A DNA stretch of 64,000 nt from Minisyncoccota bacterium. GTDB lineage: Bacteria > Patescibacteriota > Minisyncoccia > JAHIHE01 > JAGLIN01. Where the stretch lies: NCBI GenBank assembly GCA_041661265.1, contig JBAZUT010000002.1, positions 76,316 to 140,315 on the forward strand, written 5' to 3'. A model generated the notes under the pieces. It worked only from the letters and a program-made list of their open reading frames with translations. It had not been told where the DNA came from and made no database searches. Of this stretch, positions 1 through 56,474 are shown piece after piece (position 1 is the stretch's first letter; each line of letters opens with the position of its first letter). Made by a program: the position numbers and the translations under genes.

Positions 1-181
1 ATCTTTTCCTTTTCACCAAGCTTCGCCTTATCGGAATCCATATTAATATAATAAGAATAAAAGTTTCCCTCCGAACCGGTCTATGTCCCTATTTTAACAA
101 ATTATATGTATTTTGTCATACCAATCGGACTATCGCGGCAACACAATAAAAAGAATGCGGACGTTTCCGCATTTTAATAAT

Positions 182-640
182 TTAATCCGCCTTGATTGCA
201 TTCGGCAGGCTTTCTATTGACTTTTTCGCGACCGACAACAATACCGTGAACACGACAACGATCGCTCCCGTAAGGTTCATGAACATAAATGCCAGATCGG
301 GCGTTGCCGAGAATGGCACTCCAGCCTCGGCATATGTCCACGGCCTTATATACGTTACCAATACAAGCATGTATGCAACGATACTGGGAAGTATCACGGC
401 GCAAAGAGCCATTGATCTCACGAAAGTGCTGTGCGGTATCAGTCTGAATATTAATCTTGCAAATAATGTGCACTCAGCGGCTATCACAAACAAAACCGCC
501 AGATACATCGCAAATGCTTTGATGGCAATGATAATCCCGAATTCCGCAATTGCGATTATCATGCCGACAAGCAATAAACCCGCCAGAACCGAGACTATCA
601 GAATGAATGCCGCCCTCTCTTCAGAATATTCTTTTTCCAT
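182..640 (-). CDS. hypothetical small membrane protein (152 aa, about 4 TM helices)
   Basis: ORF with hydrophobic helices; weak purine-rich site upstream. Confidence 0.4.
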   Translation of the reverse strand: MEKEYSEERAAFILIVSVLAGLLLVGMIIAIAEFGIIIAIKAFAMYLAVLFVIAAECTLFARLIFRLIPHSTFVRSMALCAVILPSIVAYMLVLVTYIRPWTYAEAGVPFSATPDLAFMFMNLTGAIVVVFTVLLSVAKKSIESLPNAIKAD

Positions 641-903
641 TTCTTATCACCCTTTGTATGTTTTCAATGAATTTTAACTTTATATTTCCAGGCTGAATAT
701 GTTTCACCCGGACTTGCTATTTTACCACAAGATCCGGTTTTGTCAATCATCGCGCCAATATTCCATAAACTGGAATATTATCAATGGACACGGTCAGGAC
801 CGAAGCTGAAAAGATTATTCAGACCCTTGACGCGACCACGAACACATGCTAATGTCTTTATTCACGCTCAAACAAGGTGTGAAACGAAACAAAGAGGTAT
901 AAT

Positions 904-1080
904 ATGCTATCCGGACAACACGACGCGTTTATCGCTCTCGTTGGAACCCTGACGACAGTCGACCAGGTTGTAAGTGCAATGAATTTTGCCAGAATGGTAG
1001 ATGAAGACTCCCAGAATGGCATTTGGGAAGCCTGCCAGCAAGCTATGGCAAGAGTGCAAGTCAAACCGCCGGCTAAATAA
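904..1080 (+). CDS. small hypothetical protein (58 aa); not in the ORF track because it is under 60 aa
   Basis: ATG preceded by AAAGAGGT about 8 nt upstream; GC-richer than its surroundings; ends exactly where repeat R begins. Confidence 0.35.
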   Translation: MLSGQHDAFIALVGTLTTVDQVVSAMNFARMVDEDSQNGIWEACQQAMARVQVKPPAK

Positions 1081-1240
1081 AAGATGGATCAAATTCCATC
1101 TCATTTTTTTATTCAGCGTATGCCTATTCGCCTATTCGCGCGAATTAGAGATATTAAAAGATCCACGTAAAAGATATAAAGAAATAAAAAAATAATAGTT
1201 ACTTTTGGTAACTATTGCTTTCGGTTAAAACCGACATTCC
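1081..1240. repeat. intergenic repeat R copy 1 (second copy at 3105..3290); contains two hairpins
   Basis: About 85-90% identity by eye to 3105-3290; AATAGTTAC-TTTTG-GTAACTATT and CGGTT-AAAA-CCG hairpins. Confidence 0.6.
1194..1216. terminator. bidirectional hairpin between convergent genes
   Basis: Perfect 9-bp stem AATAGTTAC/GTAACTATT with 5-nt loop, A/T-rich flanks. Confidence 0.45.
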
Positions 1241-1243
1241 GCT

Positions 1244-1621
1244 TTATTTAGGAAGCAGCGTTTCCAATTTTTCTGATATTCTCATGCTTCCCTGAATGGA
1301 GGTTCCTCCCGGCGCTGAGCACGGAGACGGGCTTCCGGTCAGCGTTATCAAAACGCCTCCGTCTGAACTGCCCGCGAAAGATACGCACGATCTGTCACTT
1401 ACGCTTTTCAGCGATCCGCTCTCCCCTTTTTGCAGATCCTTTATCATGTCCAGATATTCAGCCCAATTTAATTTTGCGCTATAGTCGTATCTTCTGACAT
1501 CTTCCCTGTCGAAATCCTCGACTTCGAGAAAGACGAAATTTCCGTCACGGTACATTCTTGAATTGCTTGCATTATTTTCTTTTTCGCCGGTATTCCAAAA
1601 CACTTGCTTTTCGTCGCTCAT
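1244..1621 (-). CDS. hypothetical protein, paralog family A (125 aa)
   Basis: RBS AAAGAGG before ATG; paralogous to 3267..3578 (shared YDY, EY.DMIK and GSPSP motifs). Confidence 0.55.
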   Translation of the reverse strand: MSDEKQVFWNTGEKENNASNSRMYRDGNFVFLEVEDFDREDVRRYDYSAKLNWAEYLDMIKDLQKGESGSLKSVSDRSCVSFAGSSDGGVLITLTGSPSPCSAPGGTSIQGSMRISEKLETLLPK

Positions 1622-1723
1622 TATATCGCCTCTTTTGTCTGGCTTTGGCCATACTTCTTTTACTTCATACTATAATGTAATATTCCATATGTCAAAATCA
1701 GATCCCCCCTCCGAGGCAAGTTG

Positions 1724-1737
1724 TTGACATATGTCAA
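1724..1737. promoter_or_regulatory. 14-bp perfect palindrome TTGACATATGTCAA overlapping a -35-like hexamer upstream of 1788 CDS
   Basis: Palindrome seen directly; TTGACA-17 nt-TAAGAT arrangement. Confidence 0.3.
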
Positions 1738-1787
1738 TATTCATATTAAGATACGGTGTTTCACATAAAATAAATGGAGGTGAGATA

Positions 1788-2132
1788 ATGTGGACGGTAA
1801 AAGGAATCAATGGAAAAGTTTTTTTTATCAAAGGAGGATCGTCTGAAGCCGACGAACAAAAAGATGCCATTAGAGCGATATTACGGGCCTATCTGGATAC
1901 GGAAATAACTCTGGAAGATCCCGAGCCGGGATTATATGAATTAATCGTAATAAATTCATATTCTCATGGCGGACGGAAAGGCTGCATATATTTGAAATCA
2001 GAAGGTATTATATTTGTAGGGAATTATATACCTTCAAAAGACGAGTCAATAGAAGATGGCATTCATTTTGAAGAATTCAATTCAGGACAATCGGAGAAAC
2101 TCAGAGAGTTCCTTCGCCTTAAGCAGGTCTAA
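1788..2132 (+). CDS. hypothetical protein (about 115 aa)
   Basis: GGAGGTGA RBS 5 nt before ATG at 1788; ORF track ORF 1731..2132 probably starts too early. Confidence 0.5.
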   Translation: MWTVKGINGKVFFIKGGSSEADEQKDAIRAILRAYLDTEITLEDPEPGLYELIVINSYSHGGRKGCIYLKSEGIIFVGNYIPSKDESIEDGIHFEEFNSGQSEKLREFLRLKQV

Positions 2133-2265
2133 CCTGCTTTTATTTTATCCGTACTGCCGTTTTGGCATATTTACGGCTTGACATTTGGAGTGTTATTGCT
2201 ATAATACACCGTTCGAATCAGGCGCGCAAAACGTGCCACACCTGATCTCGACGGAGGTTTCAATA

Positions 2266-3075
2266 ATGGAAAACACAAAAGCCAAAACGGATATCAAGAT
2301 CAAGATCGAAAGTCTGAAAGAGAGGGATGACTTCGTTGAAACAATATCCATTTTAATGACAGAGAACCTGGAACGATACCTGGCAATGAAACGCAGAATA
2401 TGCCTTTTGGCCGGCTATGCAGAAATTACAGCCGAAGAGGAAAAGGGTGAAAAACAATACATCGCCCGGACAATTGAAAGCATAGCTTCGTTCTATCTCG
2501 ATGAGATCGACGAAGATGCACTGGCCAAAATACTTGCGGATCTCCTGCATGAAGAAGTTCCGAAATCCACCGCCACTGTCCGCGAGAACATGTGCGGATC
2601 GGTTTTGATCTGCAGCAGAAAAGAGCTGCCGGTGATAAAATGGCAGGTATTCCCCGCAGACACATCACAGCTGTTCGATCCCGCAAATGAGCTTTCAAAA
2701 GAGAAAGGGATCTCGCTCAGGGACTTTTTCAGATCCAAGGATCACTACAGGGAAATGATGGTTTCCCTATACGACAATCCGAATAGTTTCGCCCTGGATA
2801 TCACCATGCAAATAAAAGAATTCTTTGAACTGAGGCTCTCTGAATGTATTTTCATGGACCTGCTGGTCGACTCACAAGATCTGAGCAAAGTGCAAAGTTT
2901 TGTAAAAGCGAACAGGATCAATCGCCCGGAGGGAAAGAGGATCGCAACGGCAGGAGCCATAGTCGCCCTTGAATCCACGAAAGAGATTTTCGGAAATAAC
3001 GAATTGCAGGAGAAAAAACTGGCCATACTGAAAGAAGAACTCGAAGAGCTAAAAAAAACAGTAGTTCCAACCTAG
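2266..3075 (+). CDS. hypothetical protein (about 269 aa)
   Basis: ACGGAGGT RBS then ATG MENTKAK; ORF-track start at 2185 is likely upstream of the true start. Confidence 0.55.
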   Translation: MENTKAKTDIKIKIESLKERDDFVETISILMTENLERYLAMKRRICLLAGYAEITAEEEKGEKQYIARTIESIASFYLDEIDEDALAKILADLLHEEVPKSTATVRENMCGSVLICSRKELPVIKWQVFPADTSQLFDPANELSKEKGISLRDFFRSKDHYREMMVSLYDNPNSFALDITMQIKEFFELRLSECIFMDLLVDSQDLSKVQSFVKANRINRPEGKRIATAGAIVALESTKEIFGNNELQEKKLAILKEELEELKKTVVPT

Positions 3076-3104
3076 GACTACTTTTTTCTTATATTATATA
3101 AACA

Positions 3105-3290
3105 AAATGGATTAAATTCCATCTCATTTTTTTTCCAGCGTATGCCTATTCGCCTATTCGCGCGAATTAGAGATATTAAAAGATCCACGGAATAGATATA
3201 AAGAAATAAAAAATAATAGTTACTTTTGAGTAACTATCTGCTGCGGTTTAAAACCGATATTTTGTCTTATTTGGGAAGAAGCATCTTGAA
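3105..3290. repeat. intergenic repeat R copy 2
   Basis: Matches 1081-1240 including both hairpins. Confidence 0.6.
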
Positions 3291-3634
3291 TTCCAGCGGT
3301 ATTATCACAGTTCCTTTGATCTGCCTCCCTCCCGGAGAAACAGATGGCGAAGGAATGCCATATAACGTGAGCTCAGCGCGTCCGTTCCCTTTGTCCATGA
3401 AATAGACCGACGATCCGCCGTCTGCACCCTTGATAAGTCCACCCTCTCCATTCTGCATTTTTTTGATCATATCGACATATTCTGTCCAAGCCAGAACAGC
3501 GCGATAGTCATATCTTCTTTGATCTTCGCTATCATAACGTTCCACCTCCAAATATACAGAATCTCCATTCCTGTACATTCTTGAACTGTGAGCACAGGAC
3601 TGCGGTTCGCCTGTATTCCAAAATTCCTGTTCAT
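3267..3634 (-). pseudogene. frameshifted or truncated paralog of 1244..1621
   Basis: Upstream ATG at 3634 with GGAGGCG RBS is homologous to the copy-1 start but a 10-nt indel puts it out of frame; in-frame ORF only from internal Met (3578, 103 aa, no RBS). Confidence 0.4.
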
Positions 3635-3731
3635 TGTCGTTAATTATATCGCCTCCTTTGTCTGGCTTTTGCCAAACATCTTTTCCTCATACTATAATGT
3701 AATTTTCCATATGTCAAAATATCAAAGGGGT

Positions 3732-3890
3732 ATGTCGTTCCGAACTTGCTTGCCTCACCGTAGCTTTCGCGAAGGACAGGCCTGCCCCTGCCTCACGGCA
3801 GGCAGGGGCCTCCGGAGGAAGCTGGAATCCACATTTGTTTCGCAAATAATATTTATACGCACAATACGGAAGATGCTGAAACGAGTTCAG
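3732..3890. repeat. GC-rich element H copy 1 (candidate structured RNA or MITE-like repeat)
   Basis: About 80% identical to 4085-4250; internal hairpin GCCCCTGCC...GGCAGGGGC. Confidence 0.5.
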
Positions 3891-3938
3891 CATGACAATT
3901 CAGAAACCTGAATCAACCAAGGAAAGTGTTTTATACAA

Positions 3939-3966
3939 CACTATGATAATTCATATTATCATAGTG
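3939..3966. promoter_or_regulatory. perfect 12-bp inverted repeat CACTATGATAAT-TCAT-ATTATCATAGTG
   Basis: Seen directly; possible operator or hairpin. Confidence 0.3.
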
Positions 3967-4084
3967 CGGGAAAGAGTGAACAAACGCTATCTTAAAATTC
4001 TAGCCATAGCAATAAAATTAAGATAGTGGCATTTGAGAATAAAATAATAGATGGATCGAACTCCATCTCTTTTTTTAAAATAAT

Positions 4085-4250
4085 ATGTCATTCCAAACTT
4101 GCTTGCCTCGCCGTATCCGCCAGACGGCGGAGACAGACGGGCCTGCCCCTGCCTACCGGCAGGCAGGCGCCTATGGAGGAATCCGGAATCCACATTTCTT
4201 TCGAAATAATATTAATATGCATAATACGGTAGATGTTCAAATAATTATTT
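4085..4250. repeat. GC-rich element H copy 2
   Basis: Homologous to 3732-3890; preceded by a fragment of repeat R (AGATGGATCGAACTCCATCTC). Confidence 0.5.
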
Positions 4251-4254
4251 GCAA

Positions 4255-4338
4255 GTTCAAATCTCCGCATTTGAACCAAATATTTCTATACTAATAAATT
4301 AGAAACGTATGGTTCAGGTACGGAGACCTGAACCAACC
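4255..4338. repeat. attC-like imperfect-inverted-repeat element, copy 1
   Basis: ATCTCCGCATTTGAACC ... GGTTCAGGTACGGAGAC CTGAACCAACC; lies immediately 3' of the minus-strand cassette gene. Confidence 0.55.
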
Positions 4339-4343
4339 AAAAT

Positions 4344-4874
4344 CTAATTAATATTAGAACCTTGTGAAAGCTTAGAAACCTTCTGCAAAAATAGCGAACG
4401 ATTATTAGGATCAAGATCTTTTGTAAGAAAATCATAGGCCATTTTTTGTTCAGGATTCAAAATAACAAACTCGGGATTTTTAGCGTACATCCACAAAAGA
4501 AATGCCACAAATAATGGCTCTTTTTGTTTTGTTAAAAGATAATATAACTGCACAGCATCCCAAAGTACGAACTCATTAGTATCTGGATTAAATTTAATGT
4601 CCGCTTCTGAATCTCTATTTGCATGCTTAAAAAAATTCTTCGCTTCATTAAGTTTTTTTCCAAATTCATTTTGGCGTTCTTCGCGAACCGTTTCTAATAT
4701 TTGTGATTTTAAACTTTTTATTTTGCGCGCCCTACAAAGCGATTCGAACATTTCTTGAGCAGCAGAGCCTAGCGTATGAATTGAAACTGGATCATTTTTG
4801 TTTAAAAACATTTGTACAGCTTTATGCAATTGTCTTGATGCAGCATCAAGTTTTGAGATATGCATGAAAGTCAT
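4344..4874 (-). CDS. hypothetical protein (176 aa), cassette-like gene
   Basis: Clean ORF bounded by repeat elements; no recognisable family. Confidence 0.55.
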   Translation of the reverse strand: MTFMHISKLDAASRQLHKAVQMFLNKNDPVSIHTLGSAAQEMFESLCRARKIKSLKSQILETVREERQNEFGKKLNEAKNFFKHANRDSEADIKFNPDTNEFVLWDAVQLYYLLTKQKEPLFVAFLLWMYAKNPEFVILNPEQKMAYDFLTKDLDPNNRSLFLQKVSKLSQGSNIN

Positions 4875-4920
4875 TTATTTATCATTTACAATATAAAAAG
4901 ATAGATAATTACCCTCCGTT

Positions 4921-5005
4921 GGTTTAAATCTCCGCATTTGAACCAAATATTCCTATATTAATAAACTAGAAACGCATGGTTCAGGTGCGGAGACCTGAAC
5001 CAACC
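4921..5005. repeat. attC-like imperfect-inverted-repeat element, copy 2
   Basis: Near-identical to copy 1. Confidence 0.55.
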
Positions 5006-5016
5006 GAAAACATTAT

Positions 5017-5202
5017 TTATTCTGCCTTAATGCATACTCCGGTAAATTTATCACATTTCATAATTGTTTTAATTGTCGTTCCTTTTAAATCACCGAATCT
5101 TCGAGTTGATTCTGACGCTATAAAATAGTATCTATTGCTAAGCAGATATGCAATTGCAAATAATATAATCATAATAATTGCGATTGTAAATTTTTTGTCC
5201 AT
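5017..5202 (-). CDS. small membrane protein (61 aa), cassette-like gene
   Basis: ORF with N-terminal TM helix between two repeat copies. Confidence 0.35.
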   Translation of the reverse strand: MDKKFTIAIIMIILFAIAYLLSNRYYFIASESTRRFGDLKGTTIKTIMKCDKFTGVCIKAE

Positions 5203-5322
5203 AGGTTTTTGTATTCGTTTTTTAAATATTTTTAACTATAAAACATCCAACTCCTCCTATTAATTCTTTACTATACAACACTTACTGTCTATGTCGATAT
5301 CAACAACATTATATCCTTTAGT

Positions 5323-5402
5323 TGGTTCAAATCTCCGCATTTGAACCAAATATTTCTATTTTTTCAGAAACGGTTGATTCAGATGCGAATACCTAAACCA
5401 AT
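5323..5402. repeat. attC-like element copy 3 (right arm degenerate)
   Basis: Left arm TGGTTCAAATCTCCGCATTTGAACC conserved; right arm diverged. Confidence 0.45.
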
Positions 5403-5428
5403 TAATAATTCATATTGTTCATATACAT

Positions 5429-6079
5429 TTAATATTTCTTTGGAAAATACTTTTTCCCCACTTGCCACAAATATTTATCAACCTGTTTTAAAGTAAATTC
5501 ATTCAAGCCATAATATTTCCTAAAGTCTATAAGAATATCTTTATATTCTGGATATGATTTTAAATCTTGTCTTGAAAAATTACAGAATTTATCTTTCTTT
5601 TTGCAATATAACAGCATTTTTTCAACATACGAGTCATATATTGGATAAACTGTCGGTTTATGATGGCTGCAGTATTTTGTCGCAAATGAATAGAAATTAA
5701 TCATTCTTCCTCCTTTCATCCTGACATTTGCGATTTTATTTACTATTGTCAGATTATTTTTCAAAAGGCAATCGTCAATTTTTAACGCCACAATATGTTT
5801 TGCAATGGTAAATGGCGAATAAATATTTGTACTGTAGAAATCGTTTAATGAACATACTTTTATTAAAACATCATCAAGATTCTTATTCAATGGATAAGTT
5901 TTTGAAAACAATTTTCTCAAGCTGCTTTCCTGCATCATGTAATTTTCAAGAGAATTCCATCTTTTAAGATATTTTTTGATTTCTTTTTGCGACGGTTTGG
6001 GTATAACTTTACTTTTTAACATATGATTTTTGCTTCGCACTTTTGTTAAAACAACTTCATTTGAAAAAAATCCTGCCAT
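5429..6079 (-). CDS. hypothetical protein (216 aa), cassette-like gene
   Basis: Clean ORF; Lys/Tyr-rich; no family recognised. Confidence 0.55.
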   Translation of the reverse strand: MAGFFSNEVVLTKVRSKNHMLKSKVIPKPSQKEIKKYLKRWNSLENYMMQESSLRKLFSKTYPLNKNLDDVLIKVCSLNDFYSTNIYSPFTIAKHIVALKIDDCLLKNNLTIVNKIANVRMKGGRMINFYSFATKYCSHHKPTVYPIYDSYVEKMLLYCKKKDKFCNFSRQDLKSYPEYKDILIDFRKYYGLNEFTLKQVDKYLWQVGKKYFPKKY

Positions 6080-6167
6080 AAACTTGTTTCGGGAAATGTT
6101 GAGGTGGATTTATTCTACATGAAGATTATCAGATTGCCACGGCGCTTTTGTGCCTCACAATGAGTCA

Positions 6168-6215
6168 AATCCCCCTAAATCCCCCTTTTTCAAAGGGGGA
6201 AAAATAACCCGAATC
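6168..6215. repeat. C-run hairpin repeat AAATCCCCCTAAATCCCCCC-TTTTTCAAAGGGGGAAAA (copy 1)
   Basis: Second copy at 14891-14930; CCCCCTTT..AAAGGGGG hairpin. Confidence 0.5.
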
Positions 6216-6261
6216 TTAAATTTGTGACTTTACGGACATTCAGACTTTATAGACTTTCGAC

Positions 6262-7893
6262 TCATTTCCCCATCGACGCCTTAATGAATTCCACAAACAG
6301 CGGATGCGGTTTCAGGGGTCGAGATTTAAATTCAGGATGGAATTGGGTTCCGACAAAGAACGGATGCTCTTTTTTCGGAAGTTCCACGATCTCCATCAGC
6401 CTTTCGTCGGGAGAAGTTCCTGAGAAAACCATTCCCTTTGCTTCCAGCGTCCCGACATAATCGGGATTCACTTCCCACCTATGCCTGTGCCGTTCGGAAA
6501 TCTCAGAACTTTTATATGCTTTTCTTGCGATCGAGCCGTCTTTCAGTTTAGCCGGATATGCTCCCAGCCTCATCGTCGCGCCGAAGTTGCTGTCCTTCAG
6601 ATTCTTCTTCTGTTCCGGCATGATGTCGATCACGGGGTGCGGGGTCATCTCATCGATCTCCGTCGTATTGGCTCCTTCAAAACCGCAAACGTGGCGCGCA
6701 AACTCAATGCAGGCGATCTGCATTCCATAGCAAAGCCCGAGGAACGGGATCTTGTTCTTCCTGAGATATTCGATCGCCCTGATCTTTCCCTCGATCCCCC
6801 TGGCTCCGAATCCTCCCGGAACGATCACTCCGTCCATTGTTTTCAGCTCTTTCAGCTTTGCGGAATTCTTCTCATATTCTTCCGAATTTATCCATTCGAT
6901 GACCGGCTTTCTTCCCATAGCCCAGGCCGCATGCTTCACCGCCTCGATGACCGAGATATATGAATCCGACAAGACAAAATTTCCTGTGCTGAAATATTTT
7001 CCAACGATCCCGATCTTCACTGTTTTTGTGAGAGCGCGCCTCTTCTTCACCATTGCTCTCCATTCCTTGAGGTCCTTCTGCCTGATCCTCATGCCGAACT
7101 TGGAAAGTATTTTTTGCGCCAGGTCTTCATTGTCGAAATTGACCGGAACGTCATAGATCGATTCGACATCCGGAGCTGAAATGACAAAATCTTTCTCAAC
7201 ATTGCAGAACATCGATATTTTTCCCCTTCTGATCTCATCAATTGGAACTTCGCTCCTGCACATGATGAAATCAGGCTGGATCCCGACGGAGTTGAGCGAC
7301 CGCGTCGCATATTGCGTCGGCTTGGTCTTCATCTCTCCCACCTTATTCGGGATCGGCAGATAGCTCACCAGAAAGAAAAGCACATCTTTCGGATATTGCA
7401 GCTTGAGCATGCGGGCCGCCTCCAAAAAAAGAACGTTCTGATATTCCCCAACTGTTCCTCCGATCTCGACCATGACAAAATCCGCCTTCGTGTTCTTGGC
7501 CACTTTTTTTATCCTGCCAATGACCTCGAGCGGTATGTGCGGAACCACCTCGACGCACTTTCCTCCATATTCCAGATTTCTTTCGCGATGAATGACCGAC
7601 TCATAGACCCTGCCGGTCGTCATATAGTTATCCGAAAGTATATCCACATCCATGAATCTTTCATAATTCCCGATGTCCTGATCCGTTTCGATCCCGTCAT
7701 CGGTCACAAAGACCTCTCCATGCTCTATCGGATTCATCGTTCCCGCATCCACGTTTATATACGGATCTATCTTGATTGCCGTGACTGAGAAACCTTTGCT
7801 CTGAAGAACCTTGCCGATAGAAGCTGTCGCAATGCCTTTTCCCACGCCCGACATCACTCCGCCCGCAACAAATATATACTTTGTCCTTGGCAT
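6262..7893 (-). CDS. pyrG: CTP synthase
   Basis: N-terminal synthetase P-loop GGVMSGVGKG and glutamine amidotransferase GLCYGMQ motif; 543 aa. Confidence 0.97.
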   Translation of the reverse strand: MPRTKYIFVAGGVMSGVGKGIATASIGKVLQSKGFSVTAIKIDPYINVDAGTMNPIEHGEVFVTDDGIETDQDIGNYERFMDVDILSDNYMTTGRVYESVIHRERNLEYGGKCVEVVPHIPLEVIGRIKKVAKNTKADFVMVEIGGTVGEYQNVLFLEAARMLKLQYPKDVLFFLVSYLPIPNKVGEMKTKPTQYATRSLNSVGIQPDFIMCRSEVPIDEIRRGKISMFCNVEKDFVISAPDVESIYDVPVNFDNEDLAQKILSKFGMRIRQKDLKEWRAMVKKRRALTKTVKIGIVGKYFSTGNFVLSDSYISVIEAVKHAAWAMGRKPVIEWINSEEYEKNSAKLKELKTMDGVIVPGGFGARGIEGKIRAIEYLRKNKIPFLGLCYGMQIACIEFARHVCGFEGANTTEIDEMTPHPVIDIMPEQKKNLKDSNFGATMRLGAYPAKLKDGSIARKAYKSSEISERHRHRWEVNPDYVGTLEAKGMVFSGTSPDERLMEIVELPKKEHPFFVGTQFHPEFKSRPLKPHPLFVEFIKASMGK

Positions 7894-9996: not shown

Positions 9997-11130
9997 TCAG
10001 TTAAAAAGATTCTTTATTTCTTCCCTGATTTTGCCGAAGTCTCCTCCGTCGGGAAGCAGAATATATGCGCCATTCTGATCTCTTGCGGCATAAAGAAGGC
10101 CGCCGCTCGTCGTGTCAAAAATTTTATGCTTTATTTTCGTTGAATCCAGTCTCTGGGCAAGCACAGCCATTTCCTGGATCTCCCAGAGCTGCGCATCCAC
10201 CCTCACATCATTTCCAAGAGTATCCAATATTGAAACGATCTTCAGCGGATTTGAAAGGACTCCGAGTCCGAGCGCTTTTTCCTTCACTGCCATAAGGACC
10301 TGCTGCTGTCTTTTTGCCCTGTCAAAGTCATTTGAACTGAATCTTGCCCGAACGAACAGAAGCGCCGTATCCCCGTTGATCGTTTGCTTGCCGGCAGGAA
10401 GGCTGATAGGCCCCTCCTCAAACTGGTTCAGCTCGGAAAACGGCTGGCTGAGAGTTATCGTGACCCCGCCCATTGTGTCTATTATTTCTTTGAAAGCCCG
10501 AAAATCAACGCTCGCGGCATAATGAACATCAAGCCCCGTAACCTCAGAAACTGTTTTTTTTGCATAGTCCAAACCGCCCTTCCAGCTCTTTGTGTCCTCC
10601 ATGCCCAAAACATACGCCTCGTTTATCTTCCTGCTGGTCTCGTGATTGGGCATTTTTACATAAAGGTCCCGCGGGATCGATATCAATGCGACATTTCCCG
10701 TCTTAAGCTCAACGCTCGCAACCATCATGGTATCGGTCAGAAGCCCTCCATTGGGATCATCCACTCCCCTTATTCCCAAGAGAAGAACATTCAGCCGCTC
10801 AAGCTTATTCTCCTTCACTCTTTCCATTGCGGAATAATCCTCGCCCTCAACAGGCAGGATCTGGAAGAATTTTGATCCGATCGGCAGCATTCTGATTATG
10901 CTTTTCAGAACCGAATTCTGTTCTCCTGTCATCTTGTCGAAAGTCAAACTGGCCTTATTGGCCATATAGCCTCCCGAAATAACCACAGCAAACAATAGCG
11001 TACAAAACACTGCGTACGTTTTCTTTCTCCTGCTTTTTTTCAACTTGGAAATAACTCCTTCCTTGACATCAATGTCTTGATTGACGATCTTTTCAATATC
11101 GAACTTCTCCTTTGGAGGATAATATACCAT
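9997..11130 (-). CDS. LCP family (LytR-CpsA-Psr) cell-envelope polymer transferase
   Basis: N-terminal TM then DTMMVASV...ISIPRDLYV motif. Confidence 0.85.
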   Translation of the reverse strand: MVYYPPKEKFDIEKIVNQDIDVKEGVISKLKKSRRKKTYAVFCTLLFAVVISGGYMANKASLTFDKMTGEQNSVLKSIIRMLPIGSKFFQILPVEGEDYSAMERVKENKLERLNVLLLGIRGVDDPNGGLLTDTMMVASVELKTGNVALISIPRDLYVKMPNHETSRKINEAYVLGMEDTKSWKGGLDYAKKTVSEVTGLDVHYAASVDFRAFKEIIDTMGGVTITLSQPFSELNQFEEGPISLPAGKQTINGDTALLFVRARFSSNDFDRAKRQQQVLMAVKEKALGLGVLSNPLKIVSILDTLGNDVRVDAQLWEIQEMAVLAQRLDSTKIKHKIFDTTSGGLLYAARDQNGAYILLPDGGDFGKIREEIKNLFN

Positions 11131-49425: not shown

Positions 49426-52400
49426 TTATGCCTTTTTTACGCCAATCGCGACATTTACATCTCTTATCTTCAGATCCTTCACAAGATCGAAATTATTTTT
49501 TTCTATCGTTTCTATTGGCGTTATATCGGAAGCAAGGCACTCTTTTTGGATGCTTTCTTTCCATCCGCCCATGATCTTCCCGACAAGCCCATTTCCACCC
49601 CCGGACGAATAGGCGACCGAAATCCTATCGTTTCTGTCATATTTAGCCTCTTTTCTCATTGTTTGTATATGGCGGATGATCTCCCTCGAATAGCCCTCCA
49701 TTTCAAGCTCTTCGGTTATTTCAAGATATAATCCTATTTTTATTGTGCCATCATCTTCATATGCCCATCCCTCTCTTGTTTCAAATTCATTCACATAACG
49801 CGCCTCTTTAACATTCAATTCATCCCTCATAATTTCAAATAACTCATCGGTGAGTGCCGCATCTGTAAATTTATCCTTCACATCATACTTATTACTAGTT
49901 TCCTTAGTAGCCTCGATTTTCCCAATAATCAGCACACTCAACGGCATCCTAACTCTAATAGAATTTTTAGCTCTTGCCGCCAAAGCCAATTTAGTTACTC
50001 TGCGAACCAAATCCATTGACTGAGACAGCTCGTTATCAATCAATTTTTTATTTGTTTCCGGGAATTTCTCCAGATGCACCGAAGCATTTCCTGTCAGATT
50101 CCTGAAGATTTCGTCCGCAAGAAATGGCATGAACGGCGCCATGACTTTCGAATATTCGATCATGACATAATATAAAGTTCTGAAAGCATTCATTCTGTCT
50201 TCAGCATCGTTCTCGGACGAAAACCTCTTTCTTGATCTCCTGATATACCAATTTGAAAGTTTATCCGTGAAATCACGAAGGGGTCTTGAAGCCTTAACGA
50301 GATCATAGTTTTCCATCTCGCCGTTCACTCCGCTTATAAGAAGATTCAGTTCGGACACAATCCATCGGTCGAGAAAATTATCTGATATTTTTTTGCTTTC
50401 GAGGTCTTTTGCCTCGAGTTTTGCCATCTCCAGATTCATCGCAAGAAACGAGTAGGCATTCCAAAGAATGAGAATGAACCGCTTCAAAACTTCCTCCACG
50501 CCCTTCTCGGAAAAATTTAGATTCTCGCCTTTCATGACCGGAGAAGAGAGCAGATAATATCGCAAGGAATCCGCGCCATATTTTTCAATAAGAAGATTCG
50601 GATCCGGATAGTTCTTCAGGCTTTTGCTCATTTTCTGCCCGTCTTCAGCCTGAACTATCCCGTTCACGATCACATTCTTGAATGCCGCCTTATCGAAGAG
50701 AGCAGTTGAAAGAACCATCAAAGTATAGAACCATCCCCTCGTCTGGTCCAACCCTTCGGCAATGAAATCCGCCGGGAAACTCTTATTGAATTTTTCAACA
50801 TTCTCAAACGGATAATGATATTGGGCATAGGGCATCGATCCGGATTCGAACCAGCAATCGAATACGTCTCCGACAATTACCGCTTCCCCCGCGCACTTCG
50901 GACATTTCGCCTTGACCATGTCGATGTTCGGCTTATGCATATTGAACTCCCGCCCGCCCTCGTCAATATAGAATATCTCGCTCTCGCAATACCCAAGCGC
51001 ATCTTGCGCAACGAAACAATCCGCTATGGAAATTCCGCTCAAAACCCTCCTGAAGATCGCATTGATGCCTCCATGGCTTACGACCAGAATGTTCTTCCCG
51101 GGATATTTTTCTATGCACCGGCCGATGAATTTTCTGACGCGCACTTCCATCTGCCTTCTCGACTCCCCGTCTCCGCCCAGGACAAAATCATATTTTTCTT
51201 CAAGAGTTGCGATCTTCTTGTATTTTTTATAAAGCTCGTCATTCTCCAGAAGATATTTGGCCGTTCTATCGTTCCATGAACCATATTTATATTCCATCAC
51301 CAGATCATCTGTAACAACCTCCGCTTTCAATGCTTTGCTTATTATTTCCGCAGTCTGGCGGGTGCGCAGGACCGGAGACGTTATAATTATATCTATTTTT
51401 TTATCTTTCAGTTCTTTCGCTGCTTTTTCGGCATGTCCGATGCCATCCTCCGTCAGCGGATATTTTTCAAGGCTGTCCGATTTGATATTTTCCAGATTCT
51501 TTCCGCTCTCCCCATGGCGCATAAAAATGATCTTGGTTATCTTCTTTTCAGTATTATTCCTGAGTTCATCGATCGAACTTACGACCAATTTTTCTCCGCA
51601 ATCCTTGCACTTCCAGACCGGAAGCGGAGCTCCCCAGAACCTGCTCCTGGAAACCGCCCAGTCGCGCGCGTCCTCAAGCCACTTGCCGAATCTCCCTTCC
51701 TTGATATATTCCGGAACCCACCTTATCTTCTTGTTGTTCTTTATCATCTTGTCCTTGATGTCCGTGACCTTCACAAACCATGAGCTTGTCGCATAATTGA
51801 TGAGCGGAGTATTGCATCTCCAGCAATGAGGGTAGCTATGCTCGTATTTCTCCTTGGCATACAGTGTTCCGGTGTGAGCAAGATATTTTATGATCTCGAT
51901 GTCAGTTTTCTGGCTGTCTTCGGCAGACTTCACTTTCATACCTGCGAATTCTTTCATCTCGGGAGTGAATGTGCCATCCGTCCTCACGTTGACGATTATT
52001 GGAAGCCCGATCTGTTTTGCCGCCTGCATATCGATCTCGCCGAATGCCCCGTTTATGGTCACGATCCCGGTTCCGTCTTCCAGGCTCACATAATCCGTCA
52101 AATGCGTCTTATAGACATTTTCATTTTTCTTAACCCTGTCGTCATCTTTATAAAAATCGGAAAATGGATGAATATATGAAATATGCTCCATGTCTTTTCC
52201 TTCTATCTCTTTTATGGCATCGTATTTTTCAACTTTACCTTTTTCAATGACATAAGGGAGTCTTTCTTTTACGCAAATGAATTGTTCGCCTTGCGCCGAA
52301 AACAGCGTATAACTGAAATCTCCGCCCACAGCAAGGCCCATTGTCGTCGGAACACTCCATGGAGTTGTCGTCCACGCCAGAAAACTTGTCGGCTTTCCTG

Positions 52401-53067
52401 TGCATTGCTTATCCAGGAAGGCTTTGTCGGTGATCTTGAATTTCACGATAACCGAAAAATCTTTTACCGTCTTGTATCCCAGCGTCACTTCGAAATTGGA
52501 TAGCGTAGTTTCACATCTCGGGCAAAGATGCATGGACTTTTTCCCTTCATATATCAGACCTTTTTTATACAGTTCAGAAAAGACCCACCATATTGATTCC
52601 GTGTATTTCCAGTCCATGGTCTTGTAGTCATTATCCATATCCACCCACCTGCCGACTCGCGGAATGAATTTTTTCCACTCATCCGCATATCGAAGCACAG
52701 ATGAATGACAGGCATCATTGAACTTGTCCACGCCCCACTTTTCTATGTCCTTTTTGTTCTTTATGCCATGCTCTTTTTCGATCAGATTCTCGATCGGAAG
52801 CCCATGACAATCCCAACCCCACTTTCTCTCAACTCTTTTTCCCTTCATGGTCCAGAACCTGGGCACCGCATCTTTCATAAGACTCGCCACCACGTTCCCG
52901 TAATGAGGAAGTCCCGTCGCAAAAGGAGGACCGTCAAAAAAGCTATACGCCGGCTTTTCTCCCTCCTCGCCCACGGATCTTTCGAAAATCTTATTTTCTT
53001 TCCAATATGCCATCAATTCACGCTCCATTTCCGGAAAATTTTGCTTTGGATCGGCTTTTTTGAACAT
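49426..53067 (-). CDS. ileS: isoleucine--tRNA ligase (type 2) with an inserted histidine-phosphatase domain
   Basis: HYGN (HIGH) region, CP1 editing domain, KMSKS, Zn knuckles; start at MFKKADP (ORF-track extension to 53169 unlikely). Confidence 0.93.
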   Translation of the reverse strand: MFKKADPKQNFPEMERELMAYWKENKIFERSVGEEGEKPAYSFFDGPPFATGLPHYGNVVASLMKDAVPRFWTMKGKRVERKWGWDCHGLPIENLIEKEHGIKNKKDIEKWGVDKFNDACHSSVLRYADEWKKFIPRVGRWVDMDNDYKTMDWKYTESIWWVFSELYKKGLIYEGKKSMHLCPRCETTLSNFEVTLGYKTVKDFSVIVKFKITDKAFLDKQCTGKPTSFLAWTTTPWSVPTTMGLAVGGDFSYTLFSAQGEQFICVKERLPYVIEKGKVEKYDAIKEIEGKDMEHISYIHPFSDFYKDDDRVKKNENVYKTHLTDYVSLEDGTGIVTINGAFGEIDMQAAKQIGLPIIVNVRTDGTFTPEMKEFAGMKVKSAEDSQKTDIEIIKYLAHTGTLYAKEKYEHSYPHCWRCNTPLINYATSSWFVKVTDIKDKMIKNNKKIRWVPEYIKEGRFGKWLEDARDWAVSRSRFWGAPLPVWKCKDCGEKLVVSSIDELRNNTEKKITKIIFMRHGESGKNLENIKSDSLEKYPLTEDGIGHAEKAAKELKDKKIDIIITSPVLRTRQTAEIISKALKAEVVTDDLVMEYKYGSWNDRTAKYLLENDELYKKYKKIATLEEKYDFVLGGDGESRRQMEVRVRKFIGRCIEKYPGKNILVVSHGGINAIFRRVLSGISIADCFVAQDALGYCESEIFYIDEGGREFNMHKPNIDMVKAKCPKCAGEAVIVGDVFDCWFESGSMPYAQYHYPFENVEKFNKSFPADFIAEGLDQTRGWFYTLMVLSTALFDKAAFKNVIVNGIVQAEDGQKMSKSLKNYPDPNLLIEKYGADSLRYYLLSSPVMKGENLNFSEKGVEEVLKRFILILWNAYSFLAMNLEMAKLEAKDLESKKISDNFLDRWIVSELNLLISGVNGEMENYDLVKASRPLRDFTDKLSNWYIRRSRKRFSSENDAEDRMNAFRTLYYVMIEYSKVMAPFMPFLADEIFRNLTGNASVHLEKFPETNKKLIDNELSQSMDLVRRVTKLALAARAKNSIRVRMPLSVLIIGKIEATKETSNKYDVKDKFTDAALTDELFEIMRDELNVKEARYVNEFETREGWAYEDDGTIKIGLYLEITEELEMEGYSREIIRHIQTMRKEAKYDRNDRISVAYSSGGGNGLVGKIMGGWKESIQKECLASDITPIETIEKNNFDLVKDLKIRDVNVAIGVKKA
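51025..51543 (-). other. inserted histidine-phosphatase (phosphoglycerate-mutase-like) domain within ileS, about 170 aa
   Basis: KIIFMRHGESGKN ... ILVVSHGGINAIFRRV, lying between the WKCKDCGEK and CPKCAG...WFESGSMP segments of IleRS. Confidence 0.7.
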
Positions 53068-53271
53068 AATATGATTTATTTGTTTACATATCCATTTTAA
53101 GCTAATATAAGCAAAAAGTAAATATATTCCCCGATGTTGACAAAATCGTTCATATCCAATAAACTTCAAGGAAACCCTAAAATATTTTGGTCCGGGAATA
53201 TGCCTTTATTGCATAGATATAGCCATATTCTTGTCCTATAATAAGGACACGTAATACAAAGGTGATATATT

Positions 53272-55880: not shown

Positions 55881-56268
55881 GGGGATGAAATTTGGATTCG
55901 ATAGGAATCTGATTTAAAGACTGCCAATTGAGCACGCCTGTAATCTCATAAAACCTTCGGGCAAATCATAAGTGCAAAATCACTTACAGAAAAAGTGGCA
56001 TCTCTATTCAGAATGCCGTCTTTTTCAACCGCTATTGCTTAATTTAAGCCGATAGCCATCGAATTACCGATTCTTGGTAGGTAAACCTCGGTGTCATATT
56101 CCAGGATAGCGCTTGACCGCTTGGGATCAAGCCGCGAAAATACACCAAGCAAGGATCTACGGGTAACTTGGCTGTTCATCACCCATAGATCCCACTTCGA
56201 ACAGCATATATTGGTAGAAGGTCTTTGAAGGGATATCTTACACGCGGGTTCAACTCCCGCCATCTCCA
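55881..56268 (+). ncRNA. ssrA: tmRNA (ssrA)
   Basis: 5' GGGGAUGAAAUUUGGAUUCGAUAGG resembles canonical tmRNA 5' end; 3' GCGGGUUCAACUCCCGCCAUCUCCA T-arm and acceptor pairing with 5' GGGGAUG; directly downstream of smpB. Confidence 0.85.
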
Positions 56269-56474
56269 CTTAATTTCCCACCCCCGCTTTCAGTTACCGG
56301 GTAAAACTTATTTTTTGATAAGTATTTCAGTTTCAAGAAAGATTCTTCAATCTCTGGTTTTTAATTAATATTCCAATAACTTAATTTAAAAATTATATAT
56401 TCAGAAATTATTTAGGAATTAGAAATTAGAAATTAAAAATTAATTGTAAACATATAGCACAAAAAGAATTCAGG

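Follow-up and report, generated by a model that had tools for sequence, protein, structure and literature searches.

A candidate gene-cassette array built on a two-dyad repeat behind the pyrG gene of a Candidatus Paceibacterota bacterium

Three small genes lie directly behind the CTP synthase gene pyrG in the genome of a Minisyncoccota bacterium (contig JBAZUT010000002.1), and each of them is followed at its 3′ end by a copy of one repeated element. We analysed this array within a stretch of 64,000 nucleotides, referred to below as the window. The original prediction, made from the letters alone, had placed three minus-strand open reading frames (ORFs) here, each with a repeat behind it, pyrG beside them and a fourth, partial right end of the repeat further on. 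This layout was found as described. Allowing one mismatch, a 24-mer of the element, GGTTCAAATCTCCGCATTTGAACC, is found three times in the window (4254, 4921, 5324) and nowhere else in it, and GGTTCAGGTGCGGAGACCTGAACC matches at 4311 and 4978 and at no other position of it; the chance expectation from dinucleotide-preserving shuffles is 0.00 for both sequences. The copies are all oriented alike and stand 3′ of a gene, 5, 11 or 26 nt past the end of the ORF. The full copies measure about 87 nt and are 403-667 nt apart on one strand, so that three full copies and a degenerate one fall within 1.5 kb. The arrangement is base-for-base the same in contigs assembled independently by ENA, JGI and Logan; therefore, the array is not an assembly artefact.

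The element consists of two dyad sites of 24-28 bp, S1 and S2, with arms of 9-11 bp around 6-nt centres. Read on the gene strand, S1 begins right after the stop codon and has the sequence GGTTCAGGT-CTCCGC-ACCTGAACC, a 10-6-10 dyad. S2 reads GGTTCAAAT-GCGGAG-ATTTGAACC and is a perfect 11-6-11 dyad. Between them lies an AT-rich spacer of about 33 nt in which GTTTCT is invariant, and the two sites occur in fixed pairs, 57 bp apart from centre to centre. Since the S1 centre CTCCGC is the exact reverse complement of the S2 centre GCGGAG, one dyad is inverted with respect to the other. Each element thus carries four TGGTTCA half-sites forming two dyads, and its outer ends on the gene strand are GTTGGTT...AACCAAC. 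The terminal repeats had been predicted to be inverted around a 38-nt variable core. They are indeed inverted, but each is itself a palindrome, and the core is about 33 nt long.

The copies are preserved to different degrees. Copy 2 scores 110 bits with a covariance model. Copy 1 is 89.7% identical to it and differs in the outer arm of S2, which has …GAACTTGC in place of …GAACCAAC. In copy 3, S1 is the decayed third right end and reads GATTCAGATGCGAATACCTAAACC; four of its five changes are C to T on the gene strand. The partial right end, noticed earlier through its core CCTGAATCAACC at 3907-3918, is real and could be extended to a degenerate fourth copy, S1′. It is made up of the left arm and centre of S1, a 7-nt insertion (TTGTCAT) and CTGAAC, and reads TTGATTCAGGT-TTCTGA-ATTGTCATGCTGAACT.

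Table 1 Features of the array and its surroundings (window coordinates)
Feature	Position	Strand	Remarks
Low-GC island with the array	4243-6100	minus	three genes and three elements; directly downstream of pyrG in the gene direction
pyrG (CTP synthase)	6262-7893	minus	conserved proximal anchor; homology to the related contigs L096 and L097 ends at its stop
Cassette gene 1	5429-6079	minus	216-aa ORF, family PF27257 (HI_0787_N)
Element copy 3	5321-5404	minus	S1 5376-5399, decayed; S2 5324-5347, intact
Cassette gene 2	5017-5202	minus	61-aa ORF with one hydrophobic helix; gene-called in three independent assemblies
Element copy 2	4919-5008	minus	S1 4978-5001; S2 4921-4944; most regular of the copies
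Cassette gene 3	4344-4874	minus	176-aa HEPN-fold protein
Element copy 1	4252-4341	minus	S1 4311-4334; S2 4254-4277
GC-rich repeat A2	4084-4241	not assigned	between copy 1 and the terminal variant
Terminal variant S1′	3884-3918	minus	degenerate fourth copy; distal end of the array
GC-rich repeat A1	3731-3881	not assigned	just past the terminal variant

The island is foreign in composition. Its GC content is 30.0%, compared with 48.8% in pyrG, about 42% in the rest of the window and about 43% on average in the window, and it falls into the lowest-GC bin of the window. The protein of cassette gene 1 probably starts at 6022, which gives 197 aa, as in its homologues. The family is unusually well conserved, with more than 5000 homologues of 65-80% identity in Patescibacteria, Bacteroidota, Peregrinibacteria and other phyla; they adjoin restriction-modification, Shedu-type and methylase genes, and the fold of the protein weakly resembles that of HhH-GPD DNA glycosylases. 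This may be a mobile gene associated with defence or with DNA modification; we found nothing useful in the literature on PF27257 or HI_0787. For cassette gene 2 no family match was found. The product of cassette gene 3 has no Pfam domain, but its structure model is confident (pLDDT 89), and 355 homologues are present in bacteria of the candidate phyla radiation (CPR) and in Omnitrophota. With a HEPN-fold protein and a family found beside restriction-modification and Shedu genes, the cargo is typical of accessory or defence-type genes. Homologues of the gene 1 and gene 3 families occur elsewhere without the element: their neighbourhoods, with restriction-modification, Shedu and core genes, contained neither the element nor a comparable repeat.

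Relatives of the locus were reached via pyrG. In the first of them, L097, PyrG is 90.1% identical to that of the window (84% at the nucleotide level), and the upstream synteny HU-GT-Wzy-LytR-CtpB-AcyP-L9-pyrG is the same. Directly past pyrG, a stretch of 29.6% GC carries four co-oriented genes of 107, 68, 189 and 87 aa, which are unrelated to the genes of the window. One full element lies among them (10137-10227; nhmmer E = 3e-26, covariance model 98 bits). The end of this contig (10592-10627) carries the variant TTGGTTTAGGT-CTCCGC-ATTGTCATCCTGAACT, with the same 7-nt insertion as S1′ of the window (ATTGTCATSCTGAACT); our alignment of the two terminal variants has 26 of 33 positions identical. 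The presence of the same terminal variant in both genomes indicates a derived distal end common to the arrays of the two species, whereas the DNA between pyrG and this end differs. The description of the region as cassette-array-like, without an integrase nearby, is thus strengthened by an element standing between unrelated genes in a second species and by a distribution restricted to the arrays within the DNA searched.

The second relative, L096, has a PyrG with 92.4% amino acid identity to the window and 90.1% to L097. It has neither an element nor an array at the same site; between pyrG and a conserved gene of 73/75 aa there is 1.0 kb (2247-3260), which holds a single, unrelated ORF of 136 aa. 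The homology of the window to L096 and L097 breaks off only a few bases from the stop codon of pyrG. Either the array was lost in L096, or two arrays were gained separately at one site. A more distant relative (L098/L099, 83%) has different neighbours and no element. In the window, the hypervariable interval from pyrG to the conserved 73/75-aa gene (41-6261) spans 6.2 kb and comprises the array and five ORFs without a family match. Two small ORFs of this interval are paralogous, one of 103 aa (3267-3578, minus strand) and one of 125 aa (1244-1621, minus strand); they share motifs such as RRYDY...W.EY.DMIK and had no match in Pfam, NCBIfam, PADLOC or PHROGs.

An array occupying the same post-pyrG position in two species, and absent from a species between them by pyrG identity, could also have arisen by tandem accretion of small integrative elements at the pyrG 3′ end, in the manner of cis-mobilizable elements (CIMEs). 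The units would have arrived separately through the integrase of a helper lost since, and the repeats would be relic hybrid attL/attR sites. The conserved, hybrid-looking terminal site, the low-GC foreign DNA and the lack of a remaining integrase in the region agree with such a history. However, the pyrG end has no conserved att-core half-site in either genome, the units are tiny (0.3-0.9 kb) and single-gene, and full two-dyad elements rather than simple direct-repeat cores stand between them, so we regard accretion as quite unlikely. It overlaps heavily with the explanation that we favour, a cassette array served by a site-specific recombinase; the main difference is whether the units later move individually.

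The comparison with L097 also showed which parts of the element are conserved. Between the L097 copy and copy 1 of the window, 44 of 48 positions in S1 and S2 are identical, compared with 20 of 33 in the spacer (Fisher p = 0.0016). In the same two genomes, the identity at pyrG codon positions 1, 2 and 3 is 92.6, 95.4 and 64.0%. With 92% identity in the dyads, 61% in the spacer and 64% at third codon positions, we conclude that the dyads are under constraint and that the spacer is near-neutral. Within the window, copy 3 has a mosaic structure, since its 5′ half with S1 is 64% identical to copy 2 (29/45) and its 3′ half with S2 is 93% identical to it (39/42; p = 0.0016). This is what crossovers within the element would produce, and chimerism of this kind has been described for attC arrays (PMC4889954).

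To define the distribution of the element, we searched both strands of 179 kb of DNA, comprising the window, the 10 kb to the left of it (L072) and the related contigs; this total includes about 74 kb of the host genome and 10.6 kb of the relative L097. Neither nhmmer nor a covariance model built from the copies detected further copies in this DNA. Larger collections were scanned by exact-word or motif matching. In the GTDB representative genomes (596 Gb), a 19-mer gave 66 isolated single matches, with no relatives among them and no second copy; most were in Atopobium/Lancefieldella, and the one inspected (L009) lay in protein-coding-looking sequence, with no tRNA. A 22-mer scan of JGI metagenomes returned only this same locus and no other contig with the element. 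Four IMG/VR scans with centre-free palindromes and degenerate S1/S2 patterns yielded chance palindromes and unrelated conserved phage sequence, and BLASTN of the region against plasmid and phage records gave no match.

These results bear on the possibility that the element is a selfish palindromic repeat. It would then resemble repetitive extragenic palindromic (REP) doublets forming hairpins (REPINs) or miniature inverted-repeat transposable elements (MITEs), and would either have come in on foreign DNA of low GC content or have multiplied locally; genes would be exchanged by homologous recombination, with the repeats acting as portable homology, and not site-specifically. Two inverted REP-type palindromes that can make one long hairpin are the architecture of REPINs and bacterial interspersed mosaic elements (BIMEs), reportedly as set out by Bertels and Rainey in 2011. 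The copies within the window genome are also closer to each other (90%) than copies of different genomes are (76-77%), as is usual for repeat populations of a single genome; decay is seen in several of the copies, and no recombinase is near. On the other hand, all copies stand in one 1.5-kb stretch and in one orientation, and there are none elsewhere in the 74 kb of the host and the 10.6 kb of the relative, nor on other contigs of the organism's metagenomes. A scatter over both strands would have been expected of REP-like repeats; within the DNA searched, the distribution is the opposite. A REP-associated tyrosine transposase (RAYT, Y1 family) or another transposase was found neither in the tested ORFs nor in the gene calls of the genome portion covered. 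The 10-bp terminal inverted repeat GGTTGGTTCA would suit a MITE, but no target-site duplication or other direct repeat flanks the element ends, and dispersal is lacking; the MITE alternative offered by the original prediction is thus disfavoured by the distribution of the copies. Furthermore, selfish spread leaves the conservation of the dyads relative to the spacer unexplained. Taken together, we consider a selfish repeat unlikely.

Single-stranded, the element can alternatively form one 28-bp hairpin. For copy 2, the folding energies of the two strands are −20.4 and −20.3 kcal/mol (z about −6), and those of a further copy −16.6 and −17.2 kcal/mol; across the copies, z ranges from −3 to −6.7. 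The long hairpin contains only symmetric 2×2 mismatches and G-T positions. In the four full copies, 89% of the cells are paired in the long hairpin and 95% in two local hairpins, and pairing at variable positions is slightly better on the gene strand (100 of 112 cells, compared with 94 of 112). The centres co-vary: copy 2 has CTCCGC/GCGGAG, copy 1 has CTCCGT/GCGGAG, and L097 has CTCCGT/ACGGAG. This double change fits base pairing and a rule that the centres must match equally well.

Strong folds in a transcribed stretch at the 3′ end of every gene would also be expected of an RNA or regulatory element, that is, a stem-loop in the 3′ untranslated region that stabilizes or insulates transcripts, or operators for a dimeric regulator; ordinary duplication and recombination would have copied the element together with the genes. 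The better pairing on the gene strand and the C-to-T changes in S1 of copy 3 (four of five), which keep G-U pairs, fit an RNA, and dyads with 6-bp centres would suit helix-turn-helix dimers as well. Yet no copy has a terminator-like site on the gene strand or a U-tract past its stems, and the only intrinsic terminator call lies on the opposite strand (5322-5349). No Rfam family matches: with Rfam 15, only tmRNA exceeded its gathering threshold in the window, and the region 3500-6300 gave only look-alikes of miRNA precursors (21-29 bits, with thresholds of 65-119). In addition, the strand asymmetry is small, the fold energies are equal on both strands, and the occurrence of the same element with unrelated foreign genes of two species, only at this locus, would be left unexplained. 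We therefore judge a role as RNA or operator decidedly improbable.

The folds were also used to examine whether the repeats are attC sites, as had been suggested. An attC-site cluster that lacks integron integrases (CALIN) is defined by at least two attC sites that share a strand, are separated by less than 4 kb and have no intI in their vicinity (Cury et al. 2016, PMC4889954). If the array were such an integron array, its sites would be divergent but genuine attC, and an IntI whose gene lies elsewhere would recognize their folded bottom strands. In geometry the array agrees with the definition, and the site length of about 87 nt, the imperfect palindromes 3′ of promoter-poor small ORFs and the homogeneity within the genome, as in sedentary chromosomal integrons, are in line with it. 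The sites themselves fail the motif test. In the region 3500-6300, the plus strand has one RYYYAAC and no GTTRRRY, the minus strand is its mirror image, and no R″/R′ pair 50-150 nt apart exists on either strand, which bears out the earlier reservation that these cores are not cleanly present. The arms beside the 6-nt centres are ...AAT/ATT... and not ...AAC/GTT..., and the polarity of the ends (GTTGGTT...AACCAAC) is the reverse of that in attC. Folding showed no extrahelical single bases or bulges in the long hairpin and no strand-specific fold, both strands folding about equally. An attC identity is therefore barely credible. The evidence favours the fallback of the original prediction, a lineage-specific cassette system of non-integron type.

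We thus propose, at a probability of roughly 45%, that the locus is a lineage-specific chromosomal cassette array with a new type of recombination site and an unlinked recombinase. The perfect 11-6-11 dyad and the 10-6-10 dyad, with their reverse-complementary centres, have the geometry of core sites of tyrosine recombinases. The array would occupy a hypervariable site directly behind pyrG on the chromosome of the host, an uncultivated Candidatus Paceibacterota (CPR) bacterium represented by a metagenome-assembled genome. A cassette would consist of a small low-GC accessory gene, at times of several genes, followed by the element of about 87 nt. A site-specific recombinase would bind S1 and S2 as core-type sites and carry out the crossovers there; it would act on duplex DNA or on the folded single strand and would be encoded at another position of the genome or on a mobile element. 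Exchange between equivalent sites of different elements could then lead to excision, insertion and swapping of cassettes, in a mode akin to that of integron attC and plasmid pdif sites.

Several results weigh against this proposal. No tyrosine or serine recombinase and no transposase was found by Pfam among 36 ORFs of the window (including every ORF of at least 150 aa for which the syntenic ENA contig had no annotation), none of which matched PF00589, and the precomputed gene calls of the syntenic contig and of the 10 kb to the left likewise contained no recombinase. The three assemblies of the host species are identical and give no direct sign that cassettes are excised, form circles or become inverted. 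A single element is common to three genes in L097, and no attI-like motif after pyrG is conserved between L097 and the window. The element is carried by only two genomes. The decay of the terminal copy and of S1 in copy 3 shows that the array is at least in part not maintained, and it may be partly a fossil. Finally, the long hairpin and the local dyads fit the four sequences equally well, and shuffles reach the observed covariation values that would distinguish between them.

A broader claim would be that Paceibacteria possess their own integron-like capture platform after pyrG, with a two-dyad site and an unlinked recombinase whose site specificity is unrelated to that of IntI; this we consider doubtful. 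No match to the element turned up among curated families, and our literature searches returned no account of integron-type cassette arrays from the CPR. Integrons are the textbook case of modular gene capture, and their known range covers one recombinase family and one site type. If the proposal is correct, gene-cassette platforms arose more than once, and the reduced genomes of ultra-small, host-dependent CPR bacteria would have a route to gain and exchange defence and accessory genes. Surveys with attC models would miss such arrays, and the element would provide a sequence signature, with the covariance model as a start, for mining metagenomes and finding the recombinase and the cassette pool. 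If the element is instead a local REPIN-like repeat, the locus would still be a clean hypervariable spot beside pyrG, of modest interest.

The distal end of the array holds further features. The two GC-rich copies that had been noticed there, A1 and A2, are about 150 nt long each and about 80-86% identical; they carry a strong internal hairpin (GGCCTGCCCCTGCC..GGCAGGCAGG). They had no Rfam match and are absent from the related loci L096-L099, and they may explain why several assemblies break here. Between A2 and the terminal variant lies a bidirectional terminator-like hairpin, AGATGGATCGAACTCCATCT, with A/T runs at its flanks (4049-4068), of which a 35-nt copy with 89% identity is present at 1075-1109. 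The 165-nt segment between the terminal variant and A2 also contains a near-perfect 28-nt palindrome, ACACTATGATAATTCATATTATCATAGTG (3939-3966).

Some other identities were rejected. The left site resembles a tRNA 3′ end (a TTCAAAT loop, 5+7 nt, ACCA), but the putative T-stem is unpaired, and ARAGORN found no tRNA in the window; a tRNA-derived att site was thus dismissed. A diversity-generating retroelement was ruled out as well: the repeats are non-coding and differ from each other without adenine specificity, and a reverse transcriptase is lacking. As there is no GC-skew switch, the locus is not the chromosome terminus and the site is not dif. Elsewhere in the window, a tmRNA gene (55881-56271, plus strand) has the predicted tag peptide AKSLTEKVASLFRMPSFSTAIA, with no island or integrase adjoining it. 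A class I aminoacyl-tRNA synthetase of 1247 aa (49426-53169, minus strand; tRNA-synt_1 and Anticodon_1) has an inserted His_Phos_1 domain of the histidine-phosphatase superfamily at residues 547-739 (E = 2.6e-34).

Compared with known systems, the element shares with REPINs and BIMEs two short inverted palindromes with a spacer, a hairpin of about 90 nt and an extragenic position at gene 3′ ends. REPINs occur in tens to hundreds of dispersed copies per genome and are associated with a RAYT gene; the present element is found at one locus and in one orientation, with no RAYT in reach and no GTAG-type REP head. Accretion of integrative elements at the 3′ end of a housekeeping gene is exemplified by ICESt1/3 at fda. 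Like CIMEs, the array has an anchor of this type, att-like repeats between foreign units, and units without an integrase. Unlike CIMEs, its units are single genes of 0.3-0.9 kb, its repeats are complete two-dyad sites, and no att core overlaps the pyrG end.

With integrons and CALINs, the array has in common co-oriented, mostly single small genes of unknown or defence-type function, and with CALINs also a cargo of foreign composition and an integrase that is not adjacent. As in attC, an imperfect palindrome within the range of 60-140 nt, made from two 'simple sites', follows each gene. As in sedentary chromosomal integrons, the sites are near-identical within a genome and species-specific, and the cassettes differ wholly between relatives. 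The differences lie in the sites and in the platform. Unlike attC, the element lacks the R″/R′ consensus cores, its terminal repeats have reversed polarity, and its dyads are longer (arms of 9-11 bp) and more symmetric, with 6-nt centres, no extrahelical bases and no strand bias in folding. Unlike in integrons, neither an attI-like conserved site nor a Pc/intI platform was found, and the host belongs to the CPR.

The pdif modules of Acinetobacter plasmids, in which gene modules lie between dif-like sites of XerC and XerD, differ from the array in that their sites have distinct XerC and XerD arms; here the arms are perfect palindromes, the sites come in fixed pairs, and the location is chromosomal, without a GC-skew switch. 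By eye, the arms show no convincing similarity to dif sequences, and no Xer gene is present in the approximately 74 kb of the genome read. The likeness is in the geometry and in the content: pdif sites are 28-bp 11-6-11 sites that flank accessory, toxin and defence modules and are served by a recombinase encoded elsewhere, and S2 (TTGGTTCAAAT-GCGGAG/CTCCGC-ATTTGAACCAA) has the same geometry, with perfect 11-bp arms, while the arms of S1 measure 10 bp. Moreover, since the centres of S1 and S2 are reverse complements of each other, the orientation of the sites alternates along the array, and each gene is bracketed by inverted sites, as in pdif modules.

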